Below, piece after piece: positions 3,673 through 49,206 of a stretch of 50,309 bases of DNA (within the stretch, counting starts at the first letter, position 1; every line of letters starts with the position of its first letter). Location: the sequence record MN296515. One strand, 5' to 3'. Made by a program: the position numbers and the translations under genes. The notes below the pieces were generated by a model. It made no database searches and was not told the origin of the DNA. It worked only from the letters and a program-made list of their open reading frames with translations. This DNA comes from Shigella phage Sfin-3.

Positions 3673-3712
3673 CACGAATTGCTAAAACGTCGGTGGGGTG
3701 ATTTGATATAGT
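3670..3712 (+). promoter_or_regulatory. composite promoter module (TAGCA-cgaat-TGCTA, 22 nt, -10 TATAGT)
   Basis: Palindrome 3670-3684; -10 3707-3712; ATG 3745. Confidence 0.55.
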
Positions 3713-3744
3713 TACCTCATCGACAACGAAGAGAGAAAATCGAA

Positions 3745-12187: not shown

Positions 12188-12208
12188 CACAAAAACACTT
12201 TGACGCTT

Positions 12209-12223
12209 TAACAAAAAGTGCTA
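12209..12223 (-). promoter_or_regulatory. orphan palindrome copy, antisense to late operon
   Basis: Minus-strand reading TAGCA-ctttt-TGTTA; no - strand gene downstream; adjacent to terminator 12232-12257. Confidence 0.35.
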
Positions 12224-15934: not shown

Positions 15935-15973
15935 TCTGTAAAATCATCGTATCAAGTTTGCACTATTCTCTTT

Positions 15974-15988
15974 TAACAAAAAGTGCCA
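15974..15988 (-). promoter_or_regulatory. orphan palindrome copy, antisense to late operon
   Basis: Minus-strand reading TGGCA-ctttt-TGTTA between tail tube and chaperone genes; 22 nt then TACGAT on minus strand. Confidence 0.35.
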
Positions 15989-27353: not shown

Positions 27354-27381
27354 TTGACTAAACGCTGTTAATGGCTATAAT
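27354..27381 (+). promoter_or_regulatory. sigma70-like promoter for exonuclease/Erf/SSB operon (TTGACT-16-TATAAT)
   Basis: -35 27354-27359, -10 27376-27381; 32 nt upstream of ATG 27413. Confidence 0.55.
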
Positions 27382-31493: not shown

Positions 31494-31508
31494 TAGCACG
31501 AATTGCTA
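31494..31508. promoter_or_regulatory. palindrome copy in operator position at tail-fibre promoter
   Basis: TAGCA-cgaat-TGCTA lies between the predicted TSS of the - strand sigma70-like promoter (31516-31544) and the tail-fibre RBS. Confidence 0.45.
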
Positions 31509-31515
31509 AACACAG

Positions 31516-31544
31516 ATTTTATCATTGTGCTATTGGTCTTGCAA
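31516..31544 (-). promoter_or_regulatory. sigma70-like promoter for tail fibre gene (TTGCAA-17-TAAAAT)
   Basis: Minus-strand -35 31539-31544, -10 31516-31521; palindrome 31494-31508 begins at predicted TSS. Confidence 0.5.
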
Positions 31545-31574: not shown

Positions 31575-32508
31575 ATAGTAGGTCACTTGCTGAGAATAAC
31601 TTAGCTTGCATTCCTGAACGGTATCCTCCAGGATTCGGGATGATTATTTTTAATTGCCGGTCGTCAGCCATGTATAAAGTCTCCTTATCTGAAGGTTCGC
31701 ACGCCACTCTTACCTCGCGATCTCCTTTGTATCTGTACGCAACCATTTCGAGATTTTCAGGAGTGAAGCAGGCCCACACCTCTTGCTTTGTGTGAAATGC
31801 AATATGCTGAGCATCAATCCAATTAAGGCATAAGTAGATCGCTTTTTCAGTTTTACCAGTCACGGCAACCGAGCAACTTGTGTATTTCTTAGCGTAAAAT
31901 GACTCCCTTCCTTCCTCATCAATAATCAAAATATTGCAAAATTCATCATCAAGACCGTCCTCGTGTACAAGTTGACATGGTATGGTGTGAAATACGCTCT
32001 CGCCGCCATCCTCGCGACGTTTTACGCCAACGTCGAATGATTCGGTTGGTAGCGACTCAAACATGCTTAGAGGCGTGTTTACGCGCTTCTCTGTACGCTC
32101 CATGACTTTCATCACTGCCTCATGGTCTGCCATCATGACGTTTACGCCAGCTACCGGAGTGCGGCGCGCTTTCTTATTTGCCTTGACAATGTACTCCTGC
32201 GGAACTTTTCCGAGGAATCTCCCCAAGATGTTTATGCATTCGCTGTACGGCATACCAGTTAATTTCATCAACCAACCGATCCCGGAGTCATTGCCGCATG
32301 AGTTACAGATCGCACCGCCGTCTCCCGGAGTGTTTAGGTTGTCAGTCCAGCGAAAACGGTCTTTGCCGCCGCAGTTAGGGCAAGGCTGGTGCTTCTTGTT
32401 GAATACCTCGTTCGGTAATCCGCAGACGGACTGGAACGCATCGCGCCATAACCCCTTCATATACGGCAATACGTCCTCTTTCTGAAACATCATAAATTCT
32501 TCGTTCAC
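31573..32508 (-). CDS. DNA primase (zinc-ribbon + TOPRIM-like)
   Basis: 311 aa; CPNCGGKDRFRW...CNSCG zinc ribbon then acidic IIDEEG / EDGLDDEF motifs; GTG start 32508 with GGAG RBS (ATG 32493 alternative). Confidence 0.6.
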   Translation of the reverse strand: MNEEFMMFQKEDVLPYMKGLWRDAFQSVCGLPNEVFNKKHQPCPNCGGKDRFRWTDNLNTPGDGGAICNSCGNDSGIGWLMKLTGMPYSECINILGRFLGKVPQEYIVKANKKARRTPVAGVNVMMADHEAVMKVMERTEKRVNTPLSMFESLPTESFDVGVKRREDGGESVFHTIPCQLVHEDGLDDEFCNILIIDEEGRESFYAKKYTSCSVAVTGKTEKAIYLCLNWIDAQHIAFHTKQEVWACFTPENLEMVAYRYKGDREVRVACEPSDKETLYMADDRQLKIIIPNPGGYRSGMQAKLFSASDLL

Positions 32509-32521
32509 TTCCAGATCTCCA

Positions 32522-32559
32522 AATAAAAAACGCGTAGAAGGATGTTAACCCGCTACGCG
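32522..32559 (-). terminator. minus-strand terminator candidate after Cro-like gene
   Basis: 7-bp stem ACGCGTAG/CTACGCGT with 15-nt loop followed by T7 on minus strand. Confidence 0.45.
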
Positions 32560-32568
32560 TCGTTTGTT

Positions 32569-33021
32569 TTAACTAAAAATGCTATTGGTCGTTCCGATAT
32601 CTTCCTTCTTGACAACTCGCATAAACTTCTTGTTTTTGCAGCGCTTCTCAAGGCACTTGCCGTTCCCATCAAACTTCAGATCGAATCGCAGCCATGCGGC
32701 CCGAAATCCTTTGCAACCCTGTCGGCGATAAGCACGATGCGCCGCTTCAGCGCCTTGCCAGGAAATCATATTTCGATCCTTCCACCCTTGAACCGTCTGG
32801 TTGCTAACTTTCAGAGCCTTTGCGCAAGCCGCCGGACCACCATAATATTCAATAAGAGCATCCAATCGCGCTCTCAGTCCTGCGCGCGTTTCTTCTTTAT
32901 GGATATAAAATCCGCAGCGCTGGCGAGGCTTTTTATCTTTACCGCGTCGTGTTCCGTTGTTACCATTGATGTGACGTTTATCGATTTCACCAGTAGACTC
33001 TGCGATACGCTTCATATTCAT
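32569..33021 (-). CDS. Cro/YdaS-like HTH DNA-binding protein
   Basis: ATG 33021 with GGAGA RBS (track start 33093 would overlap the promoter); central ...ACAKALKVSNQTVQGW...RFDL resembles YdaS/Cro-type HTH; basic N-terminus. Confidence 0.5.
   Translation of the reverse strand: MNMKRIAESTGEIDKRHINGNNGTRRGKDKKPRQRCGFYIHKEETRAGLRARLDALIEYYGGPAACAKALKVSNQTVQGWKDRNMISWQGAEAAHRAYRRQGCKGFRAAWLRFDLKFDGNGKCLEKRCKNKKFMRVVKKEDIGTTNSIFS
32570..32584 (-). promoter_or_regulatory. degenerate palindrome copy (TAGCA-ttttt-AGTTA) at 3' end of Cro-like gene
   Basis: Encodes the C-terminal NSIFS* of the Cro-like protein; followed on minus strand by terminator 32522-32559. Confidence 0.3.
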
Positions 33022-33034
33022 ATTAATTCTCCTG

Positions 33035-33077
33035 TAGCACTTTTTGCTAAAAACGTTTACTGTATGCCGTGTATTAT
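33035..33077 (+). promoter_or_regulatory. composite promoter module for helicase operon (TAGCA-ctttt-TGCTA, 22 nt, -10 TATTAT)
   Basis: Palindrome 33035-33049; -10 33072-33077; GTG 33116; palindrome is also in the 5' leader of the divergent Cro-like gene. Confidence 0.55.
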
Positions 33078-33101
33078 ATCGTAAACGATACAACGATTCA
33101 A
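33073..33101 (-). promoter_or_regulatory. sigma70-like promoter for Cro-like gene (TTGAAT-17-TATAAT)
   Basis: Minus-strand -35 33096-33101, -10 33073-33078; its -10 overlaps the + strand -10 (33072-33077) of the helicase promoter. Confidence 0.55.
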
Positions 33102-33115
33102 AGGATTAAATAGCC

Positions 33116-35134
33116 GTGACAATTAACATCAAAAAGCAAATCGCATTACTTGGCGATGACTATATAAAACGCACTCAAGAACGATTCACTGTTGGTGAGG
33201 TCGTTCCGTATCCGTACCAGGTTGTTGCTTATGCTGAGATCGCAAAACGCCTATCAAATTATGAGCATCCATTCTTTGTTAAAGCGTCAGTATCGGCGGG
33301 TAAGACCATCATTTTTGCTATGGTTGCAAAGCAGTGTCAAAAAATGGGCTTGAAAATGCTTGTGCTGGCACGCCAGGGTGAGATTGTCGATCAGGATAGT
33401 GAAGAGATCGACAATTTCGGGGTGACTAACTCTATATTCTCAGCGTCACTTGGAATCAAGTCTTGCTACTTCCCGATCGTGGTAGGCTCTGAGGGTACTG
33501 TTGCAAATGGTTTAAATAATGAGCTAGCTGATTTTGTCCCTCACGTAATCGGGATAGATGAATGTCACCAGGTGGATTGGGAAGACCTTGCACAAGCCAT
33601 AGATGGCAAGGAAACGATGGAACAGATGCGGGAAGAGAAGGGAAAAATCATTATGAATGGGGAGGTTCCTCTGATTGGTAATGATGGGAAGCCTCTACTT
33701 GGAACTAAGCGAAGCCAATACACGATCGTAATCATGGAAATGATGCGCCGCTGCAAAGAAACTCACGGTCACGACCTCAGAATATTTGGTATGACTGGAT
33801 CTGAATTTCGTGGCGTAGTTCCTATTCTTGTTGAGAATCCAAAGGCGTTAGGCTTCTGGCGTGAGCGCGTTACTGATATAGACACCAACTACCTTATTGA
33901 GTTTGGCTCAGTTGTTCCTACTATATTCGGCTCGACGGACGGAGTTCACTACGATCTTGATAAATTTAAGGCATCAAGCGAGGATGGGGTACAGGACTTT
34001 ACAGAGAAAGATATGAAGGCAATGGAAGATGAGATCCTTCATGATAAATCTCTTACTCAGCGAATCATGCAAATGGTTGCTAAAAAGGCTGAAGAGCGTA
34101 ACGCAGTCCTGATTACATGCGCCGGGGTGCGTCACTGCAAAGAGGCGGCAGCGGCACTACCGCATGGAAGCACATATGCAATTATTACTGGCGACACAGA
34201 CACTAAAACGCGCAAGAAGATTCTTGATGATGTGAGGGCAGGGAAAATTAAATACACCTTTCAGGTCATGGCGCTAACTACTGGCGTTAACGTTCCAAAC
34301 TGGGATTTCAGTGTAATACTTCGCAAGATAGGATCTCTCACCTTGCTGATTCAGCTTTTGGGTAGGGGTATGCGACTTCTTAAATCATGGCAGGTTGCTG
34401 AAGGGATGGTTAAGCAAGACCATCTTGTATGGGATTTCGCAGGCACGATGGATGAGTTGGGGCAGCTTTATTTCGATCCTATACTTGAGCAGGCTCAGTT
34501 CCAGAAGCGATTTGAGAACGGAAAAGACCCGAAAAAGTGTCCGAAATGTGGTTGCGTAAATAGCTTCTACGCTCGCCGATGCGTTAACGTTATCGACGGT
34601 GAACGCTGTGATCATTTCTGGACTTCTCAGATTTGCGAGGACCAGGTTGATGAACGTACCGGGAAAATTCTTGTTAAAGGGTGCGGTGCCGAGAATGACG
34701 TTGTTGCCCGAGTCTGTCGCTGTTGCGATGTTTCTCTTGTTGATCCTAACCTTAAGTTATCCGGTAAGGCGTACACTAAGAATGACTGGTACGAGGTCAA
34801 GAATTTTGAAGTTACGTTAACCAAAAACCAAAAGGGTGTGATATACAAATACACACTTATTAACGACGATGGTGATGAGTTCAAGGCGTATGAAAAATTC
34901 TTCCCTGAGTCAGACTCTAAGATTTGCGGTACGCTATGGAAAACGAAAGGAGTATTGCCTCACGTATCAGATCCTAAAATGCGTCGCTACTTTATCGGAA
35001 TGAAGAACGCTATCAAGATCGTGCAATACGCTCATCATATAGCGCATCCGGTACGCGTTACTCATAGACGCAACCAGAAGAAAGAAGATATTATTTTACG
35101 CAAAGATTTTGGTATGGAGGATATCCCGGAATGA
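33116..35134 (+). CDS. SF2 DNA helicase (DExH box) with C-terminal zinc fingers
   Basis: 672 aa; Q-motif PYPYQ, Walker A SAGKT, DECH box; C-terminal CPKCGC...C...C clusters; GTG start after module 33035-33077. Confidence 0.8.
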   Translation: MTINIKKQIALLGDDYIKRTQERFTVGEVVPYPYQVVAYAEIAKRLSNYEHPFFVKASVSAGKTIIFAMVAKQCQKMGLKMLVLARQGEIVDQDSEEIDNFGVTNSIFSASLGIKSCYFPIVVGSEGTVANGLNNELADFVPHVIGIDECHQVDWEDLAQAIDGKETMEQMREEKGKIIMNGEVPLIGNDGKPLLGTKRSQYTIVIMEMMRRCKETHGHDLRIFGMTGSEFRGVVPILVENPKALGFWRERVTDIDTNYLIEFGSVVPTIFGSTDGVHYDLDKFKASSEDGVQDFTEKDMKAMEDEILHDKSLTQRIMQMVAKKAEERNAVLITCAGVRHCKEAAAALPHGSTYAIITGDTDTKTRKKILDDVRAGKIKYTFQVMALTTGVNVPNWDFSVILRKIGSLTLLIQLLGRGMRLLKSWQVAEGMVKQDHLVWDFAGTMDELGQLYFDPILEQAQFQKRFENGKDPKKCPKCGCVNSFYARRCVNVIDGERCDHFWTSQICEDQVDERTGKILVKGCGAENDVVARVCRCCDVSLVDPNLKLSGKAYTKNDWYEVKNFEVTLTKNQKGVIYKYTLINDDGDEFKAYEKFFPESDSKICGTLWKTKGVLPHVSDPKMRRYFIGMKNAIKIVQYAHHIAHPVRVTHRRNQKKEDIILRKDFGMEDIPE

Positions 35135-36576: not shown

Positions 36577-36610
36577 TTGCTAAAACTACCCGGCGAAAGT
36601 CGGGTATAGT
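36568..36610 (+). promoter_or_regulatory. composite promoter module (AAGCA-ctaat-TGCTA, 22 nt, -10 TATAGT)
   Basis: Palindrome 36568-36582; hairpin 36588-36605; -10 36605-36610; ATG 36643. Confidence 0.55.
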
Positions 36611-36642
36611 TATTTCATCAAAACGAAATGAGGAATAAGAAG

Positions 36643-46448: not shown

Positions 46449-46754
46449 TTAACTTGTCACGACTGTAATATTTGTCTAGAATCGCACTTGTGACAAAATT
46501 ACGCACTGTGACGCATAACAATAGACATGTAGATATATGTATATATATAATATATATAGTGTTTTTTTATTTATATATATAGATAATCATATTGTAATGG
46601 TTGTGTATAGCCGTCTTACATTGTCTAGCGTACTGTTGGCATATTTCTATCTGCATGTTTATATATACAGTACTTTTTTGAGAGCCATATATTTCTATAT
46701 GGACCCTAGACAGCTAGACAAATGTTACACAGCTTAAAATTGGCTCGCAGGCAT

Positions 46755-46783
46755 TGACAGCCCTACATTGCGCCGTCACAATG
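46755..46783 (+). promoter_or_regulatory. weak sigma70-like promoter candidate (TTGACA-17-CACAAT)
   Basis: -35 46755-46760 perfect, -10 46778-46783 poor; in AT-rich region B upstream of gene 46842. Confidence 0.3.
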
Positions 46784-47415: not shown

Positions 47416-47447
47416 CTTTTCATCGACACGATACAGAGGAAACGAAG

Positions 47448-49136: not shown

Positions 49137-49176
49137 CACTTTTTGTTAAAACTCAATTCCGGGGTTGCGATATAGT
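49134..49176 (+). promoter_or_regulatory. composite promoter module (TAGCA-ctttt-TGTTA, 22 nt, -10 TATAGT)
   Basis: Palindrome 49134-49148; -10 49171-49176 inside hairpin 49161-49182; ATG 49207. Confidence 0.55.
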
Positions 49177-49206
49177 AACCCCATCGATAACGAACGAGGA
49201 TTTATC

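Follow-up and report, generated by a model that had tools for sequence, protein, structure and literature searches.

Locus and Genome Context

The region between the helicase gene and a small gene for a protein with a Cro fold was characterized in a 50,309-nucleotide stretch of DNA from Shigella phage Sfin-3 (sequence record MN296515), referred to below as the window. A gap of 94 bp separates the open reading frame (ORF) of the small protein (150 aa, 32569-33021, minus strand) from the helicase gene (33116-35134, plus strand), and the primase gene is beyond the 150-aa ORF, likewise on the minus strand. The features of the gap point to a bidirectional promoter whose two arms share a -10 region and whose helicase arm has a consensus Escherichia coli marbox at the place of a -35 element. 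By sequence, the window genome is a Tunavirus (T1-like, Drexlerviridae). A search with the 1 kb from 32400 to 33400 matched 121 phage records, and this region was 97.7% identical to that of Escherichia phage vB_EcoS_SA30RD. The gene order, with the helicase gene in one direction and the small ORF and then the primase gene in the other, was the same in six subfamilies or genera that were fetched singly and in one Vibrio phage.

Divergent Promoters with a Shared -10 Region

The minus-strand promoter TTGAAT-17 nt-TATAAT, which a first-pass annotation of the sequence had assigned to the 150-aa ORF, was located by a promoter scan at 33101..33073 with 10 of 12 matches to the sigma70 consensus. The same promoter is annotated in the records of SA30RD and Chapo and also was called by the annotators of KP36 and TLS. 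As had been noted, the plus-strand hexamer TATTAT (33072-33077) has five positions in common with the minus-strand -10. The two hexamers (33072-33077 and, on the minus strand, 33078-33073) are offset by 1 nt, and one 7-bp stretch, TATTATA (33072-33078), serves both strands. Nucleotide 33073 is position 2 of the plus-strand and position 6 of the minus-strand hexamer, and 33077 is position 6 and position 2, respectively. This is the pairing found in bidirectional promoters of E. coli, where -10 positions 2 and 6 pair across the strands and the starts are 7-25 bp apart, most commonly 18 bp (Warman/Grainger). The divergent starts predicted here, 33084 and about 33066, are 18 bp apart. The locus is thus laid out, with starts that are predicted, as the published bidirectional promoters of E. 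coli are. Because the starts (33084 on the plus and 33065-33067 on the minus strand) lead apart, the promoters are back-to-back, or divergent, and not face-to-face as they had been described. The overlap of the -10 hexamers would make the two promoters mutually exclusive.

The position given earlier for the palindrome at 33035-33049 also was verified: it is near -42 for the plus-strand start at 33084 and at +18 to +32 from the minus-strand start near 33066. The palindrome ends 1 nt from the AGGAGA Shine-Dalgarno sequence (33033..33028) of the small ORF, and a CTCC/CCTC block abuts the box in all relatives examined.

Conservation was assessed in 81 loci (54 distinct variants), namely Vibrio phage Vc1 and 80 loci that an alignment of the small protein picked out in IMG/VR. 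The A at position 2 and the T at position 6 of both -10 hexamers were conserved in 54 of 54 variants, which cover Tunavirinae, Tempevirinae, Rogunavirinae, Braunvirinae, Webervirus and Vc1, and the shared heptamer was always TATTATA, TATGATA or TAGTATA. The compact pair of promoters with overlapping -10s is, as a layout, conserved across Drexlerviridae. The leftward -35 varied (TTGAAT, TTGACT, TTGTCA and others) and had at least four of six matches in 37 of the 54 variants. A 10/12 sigma70 match alone was not above chance, with 13 matches of at least 10/12 in the window and four in a 3-kb scan compared to 4.8 expected. Support for the minus-strand promoter comes from the conservation of both -10s and not from its sigma70 score.

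Intergenic sigma70-like promoters (at least 10/12) were detected at three places: 27354-27381, before a recE-like exonuclease gene; 33073-33101, before the Cro-fold gene; and 46454-46782, in a divergent gap of the small-gene region. These three regions may be the sole transcription units that are independent of an activator. They mirror P51, P57 and P01 of phage TLS. In the TLS genome paper, just three sigma70 promoters are listed as intergenic; P57 is among them, with direct repeat DR11 directly beside it.

A Consensus Marbox Ahead of the Helicase Gene

The marbox as defined by the Grainger laboratory is the asymmetric sequence 5'-gcannwwntgnnaaa-3'. In class II promoters it is in forward orientation, overlaps the -35 position and is centered between -36 and -55. 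Forward sites cluster at -41, and class II promoters have a canonical -10 and no -35 element, with a mean -35 match of 1.9. The box GCACTTTTTGCTAAA (33037-33051) agrees with this consensus at all 10 specified positions with no mismatch. It is forward, is centered near -40 of the predicted +1 and overlaps the -35 position, and the best plus-strand -35 hexamer had three or fewer of six matches in the window and never more than four of six in the 54 variants. The proposal that the palindrome is at an activator position of the helicase promoter is borne out by this class II position and by the lack of a -35. Every marbox position was invariant in all 81 related loci. Positions that had not been selected also fit the longer marbox consensus (A at -2, Y at -1, C at 4, Y at 11 and 12), and the extent of the box is -50 to -31.

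The micF promoter of E. coli K-12 reads GCACTGAATGTCAAA-20 nt-TAGAAT, with the box centered at -41 from the annotated RNA start. In the complex of Rob and polymerase on micF, the A site (GCAC) and the B site (CAAA) are both read by one Rob monomer, which makes contact with -47G and -45A and pushes sigma region 4 off the -35 position. With the predicted +1 at 33084, G33037 is at -47 and A33039 at -45, the positions that Rob contacts in micF. A literature search found no paper that links the marbox or Mar/Sox/Rob with Drexlerviridae or T1-like phages, and a high-throughput phage-resistance screen included no T1-like phage.

Several other identities for the box were considered and rejected. Comparison of TAGCAC-N3-TTGCT with the sigma54-type promoter TGGCAC-N5-TTGCW, by inspection, showed AG where GG is needed, blocks that are 2 nt too close and a sigma70 -10 at fixed distance downstream. 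TTGCTA as a -35 would leave a spacer of 22 nt to the -10, which is too long. No mimic of a host site for Fis, IHF or CRP fit on inspection.

The Box as a Probable Genome-Wide Promoter Module

The pattern TAGCA-N5-TGCTA with at most one mismatch occurred 23 times in the window compared to 1.65 expected, and the palindrome recognized in the first-pass annotation is therefore a real element, far commoner than chance. Perfect marboxes numbered 21, where 100 first-order Markov simulations gave a mean of 0.86 and a maximum of 3. A TAnnnT-type hexamer was present exactly 20 nt past the AAA in about 16 of the 21 perfect marboxes, and in a listing of the palindrome copies with their flanks the copies had TATAGT or TATTAT after a spacer of exactly 22 nt. 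The boxes are co-oriented with the genes downstream (plus in plus-strand blocks, minus in the 40-46 kb block) and are followed by a conserved leader and a Shine-Dalgarno sequence. From this arrangement, the perfect and one-mismatch boxes (Table 1) look like the main promoter set of the phage, with about 25 transcription units.

The relatives had 419 perfect boxes in 1.5 Mb, or 0.28/kb compared to 0.045/kb expected (six times). A TAnnnT hexamer was at 19-21 nt in 238 of 331 distinct box contexts, and an A with a frequency of 0.79, 7 nt past the -10, is the likely +1. The window box is the 21-nt direct repeat aaATAGCACnnnTTGnTAAAA of TLS, which is also found in T1, Rtp and Rogue1. The function of the repeat was left open, with stoperators, enhancer sites or UP elements suggested (German, Kropinski and colleagues, TLS paper, 2024). 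The stoperators of mycobacteriophage L5, oriented repressor sites within transcribed DNA that keep no set distance to promoter elements and act with a phage repressor, are a poor model for it, as the box has its fixed distance of 19-21 nt to the -10, the phage is virulent and no repressor of that type is known.

A few boxes are in unusual settings. In the interval 31494-31544, a perfect plus-strand marbox is between two minus-strand genes (tail fiber and primase) and its plus-strand -10 is poor (TATTGG). It covers about +1 to +15 of a minus-strand sigma70-like promoter of the tail-fiber gene, TTGCAA-17 nt-TAAAAT with TG (31544..31516), and ends 7 nt from the tail-fiber Shine-Dalgarno sequence. 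It is a second instance of a box within the leader of a transcript that runs the other way, and the repeats listed for TLS include no counterpart. Minus-strand marboxes at 12207-12221 and 15972-15986 oppose the plus-strand structural operon, where DR7 of TLS is a similarly placed reverse repeat. With TACGAT at a distance of 20 nt, the box at 15986(-) is a possible source of antisense RNA past the major tail protein gene. Vibrio phage Vc1 (L104, MT360682.2) has marbox-type boxes with the same spacing, for example at 804, 6426(-), 7492(-), 9987(-) and 15177(-).

Table 1. Features of the helicase/Cro-fold gene region and positions of marboxes in the window. HTH, helix-turn-helix; AF2, AlphaFold model. 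For perfect marboxes, the position is that of the first base (g).
Feature	Position	Strand	Basis
Cro-fold HTH gene, 150 aa; T1p23/TLS gp57 homolog; Drexlerviridae core gene	32569..33021	-	ORF, Pfam, AF2, PDB matches
Shine-Dalgarno AGGAGA of HTH gene, 6 nt 5' of ATG at 33021	33028..33033	-	Read from sequence
15-bp palindrome TAGCACTTTTTGCTA	33035..33049		TAGCA-N5-TGCTA pattern, 23 copies with at most 1 mismatch
Marbox core GCACTTTTTGCTAAA, forward, centered near -40; full 20-bp box 33034-33053	33037..33051	+	Perfect consensus match
20-nt spacer without -35; best hexamer at most 3/6 vs. TTGACA	33052..33071	+	Sequence reading
-10 TATTAT, helicase-operon promoter	33072..33077	+	Sequence reading, conservation
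-10 TATAAT, HTH-gene promoter	33073..33078	-	Promoter scan
-35 TTGAAT, HTH-gene promoter; 2-nt overlap with helicase Shine-Dalgarno (33100-33101)	33096..33101	-	Promoter scan; homolog is P57 in TLS
Predicted helicase-operon transcript start (A, 7 nt past -10)	33084	+	Inferred; A at 0.79 in family matrix
Predicted HTH transcript start, 18 +/- 1 bp from plus-strand start	33065..33067	-	From -10 position
Inverted repeat CGTTTAC (33054-33060)/GTAAACG (33081-33087), encloses both -10s	33054..33087	+	Weak local member of promoter hairpin class
Shine-Dalgarno AAAGGA, helicase gene	33100..33105	+	Sequence reading
Helicase gene, GTG start, first of rightward operon (helicase, VRR-NUC, Dam, others)	33116..35134	+	ORF, Pfam
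One-mismatch marbox-like box (32582..32568), then terminator hairpin with -10 TAACAT in loop	32524..32582	-	Fold, box search
Perfect marboxes	310, 1857, 2377, 3672, 5503, 31496, 33037, 35547, 36570, 38558, 47375, 48115, 49136, 49914	+	
Perfect marboxes	12221, 15986, 40333, 42495, 44862, 45327, 46435	-	
One-mismatch marboxes with good -10	28481; 32582(-), 42995(-), 43510(-), 46230(-)		

Symmetry of the Box and the Cro-Fold Protein

The first-pass annotation described the site as a palindrome. Symmetry was tested on sites collected with a seed that did not select the flanks, and the conserved unit was asymmetric, 20 bp long and oriented with transcription. Positions that only the marbox specifies (the AAA tail and the two W positions) were still conserved under this seed. 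Outside TAGCA/TGCTA, pairs were complementary in only 7-17% of sites, and the G:C pair within the arm held in just 55%, since the right half may read either TGCTA or TGTTA, both of which fit the marbox. Runs of A on the same strand flank both sides of the box. Bases that only the palindrome needs were altered in Webervirus (CAGCAC), in one further relative (L063, CCGCAC) and in Vc1 (GAGCAC), with all marbox positions intact, which speaks for selection on the marbox rather than on the dyad. The equal half-sites and independence of orientation of a lambda-type dimer operator were not observed, and the symmetric operator is thus not upheld.

The product of the 150-aa ORF had been called a Cro/YdaS-like HTH protein. 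Its Pfam scores were below the gathering cut-off (23.3 bits against 30.2 for P22_Cro, PF14549; 19.2 against 30 for YdaS, PF15943), and precomputed hits flag homologs at 55-60% identity with both families. An AF2 model from 23 sequences had a predicted local distance difference test (pLDDT) score of 81, and above 90 over residues 38-137. The top Foldseek matches in the PDB were the all-alpha Xfaso-1 Cro and N15 Cro proteins (target TM-score 0.65-0.74, probability 0.99-1.0, E about 1e-2 to 2e-1). As modeled, the protein is Cro-like at the level of the fold, and the Pfam assignment falls short.

Homologs are present in 823 phage records, and the protein is the sole annotated regulator in the well-annotated LeonhardEuler genome. 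The start of the recognition helix varied among genera (SNQTVQGW, SCQTINQW, TRQAVEEW, PYGTVRHW) and the box was invariant in the same phages, which counts against the Cro-fold protein as reader of the box. The Cro-fold protein of Vc1, a T1-like vibriophage, was only 45% identical, and its boxes are the same. The most invariant parts of the protein are outside the HTH, in residues 1-35 and 100-137. They comprise a basic N-terminus that is predicted to be disordered (IDKRxxNGNNGTxRGxDxKxR) and a C-terminal extension (RxDLxFxxNG...C...RVV). The invariance of these parts suggests a conserved partner or a function besides sequence-specific reading of DNA.

Hairpins, Terminator and Leader Motifs

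The 7-bp inverted repeat CGTTTAC/GTAAACG is a true repeat where the first-pass annotation had placed it; the hairpin (E = -9.3 kcal/mol, z = -1.03) is not above chance when taken alone. Its right arm overlaps the generic leader motif AAACGA. The repeat was rejected as an operator of the Cro-fold protein because its half-sites are 27 bp apart, it is not conserved outside Tunavirus and its right arm is that generic motif. As a class, promoter hairpins are real, with a mean z of -2.25 for 26 window promoters and -1.85 for 99 non-redundant relatives. Most box promoters carry a hairpin that encloses the -10 or ends on its first bases, with a stem sequence that differs from promoter to promoter. The hairpin stretch covers about 48 nt past the marbox (e.g., 325-372, 2392-2439, 3687-3734, 36585-36632 and 49151-49198, and in relatives L024-L104). 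The sense strand folded better than the antisense strand in 59 cases and worse in 36 (p = 0.0014), which hints at a role in the RNA of read-through transcripts.

The terminator past the HTH gene has stems at 32530-32537 and 32553-32560 and a T-run (E = -17.3, z = -5.4). The element at 32524-32582 is predicted from its sequence to end the HTH transcript and to restart transcription for the primase gene. TLS has the same pairing of box and terminator in DR10 and T57. No Rfam family was detected in the window. A conserved leader motif, CA(T)CGAAACGA, starts at the predicted +1 of some units (e.g., 3719-3735, 36617-36632, 47422-47436 and 49183-49197), and other units have a conserved CAACCAATCAGAGGA block around the Shine-Dalgarno sequence. 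Vc1 shares the first motif (CAACGAAACGA). The leader motifs could be a signal for translation or stability.

Proposed Mechanism and Its Weak Points

We give somewhat better than even odds (a probability of about 0.55) to the reading that the gap is a bidirectional promoter in which a class II marbox and a host activator of the MarA/SoxS/Rob type drive the helicase operon, with polymerases competing at the shared -10. The architecture of the sequence, its statistics and its conservation are established; we infer where transcription starts, which protein is the activator and that the polymerases compete. In the leftward direction, the sigma70 holoenzyme would transcribe the Cro-fold gene from TTGAAT-17 nt-TATAAT, and the transcript would end at the terminator just past that gene, where the -10 in the terminator loop would belong to a further box-type promoter for the primase gene. 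In the rightward direction, a monomeric activator with two HTH motifs would bind the box, most likely the constitutive host protein Rob, or MarA or SoxS under stress. The activator would contact sigma region 4 and the C-terminal domain of the alpha subunit and recruit polymerase to TATTAT. One polymerase would fit the shared -10, and strong rightward activation would lower transcription of the leftward regulator gene by competition. By analogy with PacrA/acrR, the box in the leader of the Cro-fold mRNA (+18 to +32) need not be a roadblock. The same module of box and -10 would drive about 25 transcription units of the phage. An activator of host type is favored because the box equals the marbox in sequence, orientation and spacing and because no AraC-type candidate of the phage was found; Pfam detected no AraC/MarA-type domain in 20 other phage ORFs of at least 95 aa.

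Several observations weigh against this mechanism. Three positions are conserved beyond what the marbox needs (the A before GCAC, the T at position 8 and the T of TAGCA), and two of them extend the palindrome. The Cro-fold gene always adjoins the site, has one of the few canonical sigma70 promoters and fits the logic of an early activator. Vc1 infects Vibrio and carries the same boxes, and a Rob/MarA-type reader in the Vibrio host is a presumption. Unless an inducer is present most Rob is sequestered, and unstressed cells contain little MarA or SoxS; dependence on these proteins would be odd for a fast lytic phage. A literature search found no transcriptome, start-site or binding data on T1-like phages. 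When the Keio collection of E. coli single-gene knockouts was screened with LL5, a TLS-like phage, none of rob, marA and soxS was among the hits, and this is weak evidence in that single knockouts of redundant factors were screened with a threshold of about 20-fold in plating efficiency. Given these weak points of the marbox reading, three rivals were kept: the Cro-fold protein as reader of the box, a composite site and an element independent of any factor.

Alternative Explanations

The first of these is the model of the first-pass annotation, in which one protein bound at the palindrome represses the Cro-like gene and activates the replication operon. In the form considered here, a dimer of the Cro-fold protein on TAGCA-N5-TGCTA would activate the helicase operon and about 25 box promoters from about -42 and repress its own gene, as an early-to-middle switch. 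The activator position and the overlapping -10s of this model stand, and the symmetric operator and a Cro-like reader have become less likely, such that the model as a whole is possible and clearly the less probable account. It draws on the Cro fold of the protein, the habit of Cro proteins of binding dyads as dimers, half-sites that are 10 bp apart and the conservation of T(-1), A0 and T12 beyond the needs of the marbox. The gene is a core gene that always adjoins the site and is the only annotated regulator of LeonhardEuler, and canonical sigma70 promoter regions like its own number only about three. The conserved unit, however, is 20 bp long and asymmetric, with outer pairs complementary in 7-17% of sites and the arm G/C pair kept in 55%, and its orientation always tracks transcription, which a symmetric dimer would not need. 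Positions that serve only the palindrome change in Webervirus, L063 and Vc1 and marbox positions never do, and the recognition helix differs among genera while the box is invariant. The model would also make a coincidence of the agreement with the marbox, which extends to sequence, orientation and the spacing of 20 nt.

In a composite site, host Rob, MarA or SoxS would turn the promoters on at infection, and a dimer of the Cro-fold protein on the nested palindrome later would displace the activator and shut off or retune the promoters, including its own. This explains both layers of conservation, the marbox positions and the dyad-completing T(-1), A0 and T12. Damping of early transcription is a classical role of Cro proteins. 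The dyad-completing positions are nevertheless lost in several genera, the recognition helix is variable and the proposal is a conjecture; we regard it as unlikely. A broader version is just as doubtful. About 25 consensus class II marboxes would wire nearly the whole of T1-like transcription to the host Mar/Sox/Rob system, nested dyads would let the Cro-fold protein compete with the host activator, and at 33035-33078 the composite site would share its -10 with the promoter of the Cro-fold gene itself. Such a switch would go on and then limit itself and turn off, and it would be coupled to bile, oxidative or antibiotic stress of the host.

UP elements are A/T-only sequences at about -59 to -38 that are read by the C-terminal domain of the alpha subunit. 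It is improbable that the box is a UP-like element of this kind, which would contact polymerase directly and suffice without an activator when joined to a good -10 that often has G or TG at -14/-15. Flanking A-runs, TGn before the -10 at about four window promoters (310, 2377, 3672 and 48115), a frequency of 0.70 for G at -14, the failure of the Keio screen to find a host activator and the listing of this option in the TLS paper all speak for it. The invariant G, C and A and the invariant T and G of the box are foreign to UP elements, the box at -50 to -31 overlaps the -35 position, and the position-for-position match to the marbox is left unexplained. Finally, there is little chance that the HTH gene is transcribed from elsewhere (e.g., TTGACA-18 nt-AAAAAT at 33340..33311 inside the helicase gene) and that its minus-strand sigma70 match arose by accident from the symmetry of the -10. 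In favor of this, 10/12 matches are no rarer than chance, and 17 of the 54 variants have a weak or variable -35. Against it, the HTH gene needs a promoter in the divergent gap, A2 and T6 of the minus-strand -10 are conserved in 54 of 54, and the promoter calls made independently by the annotators of SA30RD, Chapo, KP36 and TLS agree.

Significance

T1-like phages encode neither an RNA polymerase nor a sigma factor and have about three canonical sigma70 promoters and some twenty unexplained repeats (TLS paper, 2024, and the T1 paper of 2004 as cited there). Bidirectional promoters, class II marbox promoters and the repeats themselves were already known. New, on the sequence comparisons made here, would be that the repeats are consensus marboxes at micF spacing, that they form about 25 promoters of a virulent phage family and that one is fused to a regulator promoter via a shared -10. 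The marbox reading turns the promoter puzzle of T1-like phages into a specific hypothesis that is cheap to test, with Vc1 a useful case for deciding between a host protein and a phage protein as reader of the box. If the reading is true, Rob, MarA, SoxS or RamA is needed by a large family of virulent enterobacterial phages that has medical uses. These regulators are induced by bile salts, oxidants, salicylate and many antibiotics and are up-regulated in multidrug-resistant clinical isolates. Phage productivity would then be linked to the stress and resistance state of the host, with a bearing on phage-antibiotic combinations and the choice of production hosts. Locally, the gap would offer a clean example from nature of a bidirectional promoter whose class II activator determines the balance between a regulator gene and the replication operon.

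Comparison with Known Systems

The closest likeness is to micF, for which activation complexes with Rob, SoxS and RamA have been solved. Both have a forward marbox over the -35 position centered at -40/-41, 20 nt from the AAA to the -10, no usable -35 and both the GCAC (A site) and YAAA (B site) sequences. The phage box differs in that it fits the consensus perfectly, where the micF box departs from it at one position, is present in about 25 copies in a 50-kb lytic genome and is half of a bidirectional promoter; binding to it is predicted from sequence. PacrA/acrR resembles the phage locus in its shared -10, with a regulator gene in one direction and an operon in the other. Experiments showed that when SoxS activates one of its arms the other is repressed because the two compete for polymerase, and that SoxS on its site is no obstacle to elongation (Warman et al., NAR 2026). 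The acrA marbox differs in that it is class I (upstream and reverse) with the -35 kept, and AcrR is a TetR-type repressor of both arms, whereas the phage has a class II marbox inside the leader of the divergent transcript.

The 21-nt repeats of TLS are the same element, with DR11 next to P57 before the helicase gene and with GAA, TTT and AAA subtypes. The authors of the TLS paper reported no match to the marbox, no fixed distance of 20 nt to a -10 and no -10 shared with P57. The Cro-CI switches of lambda and P22 at PR/PRM also have a Cro-fold gene by compact divergent promoters, and the site near -42 recalls CI at PRM. The phage differs from them in having no second repressor and no array of three dyad operators, in a site that is asymmetric and genome-wide, and in being virulent. 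Phage Mu with Mor/C and T4 with MotA/AsiA likewise have many promoters in which a good -10 is joined to a conserved upstream box that stands in for the -35. In both, the reader of the box is a phage protein (Mor/C at dyads near -43, MotA at its box at -30), whereas the box of the T1-like phages matches the site of a host regulator.

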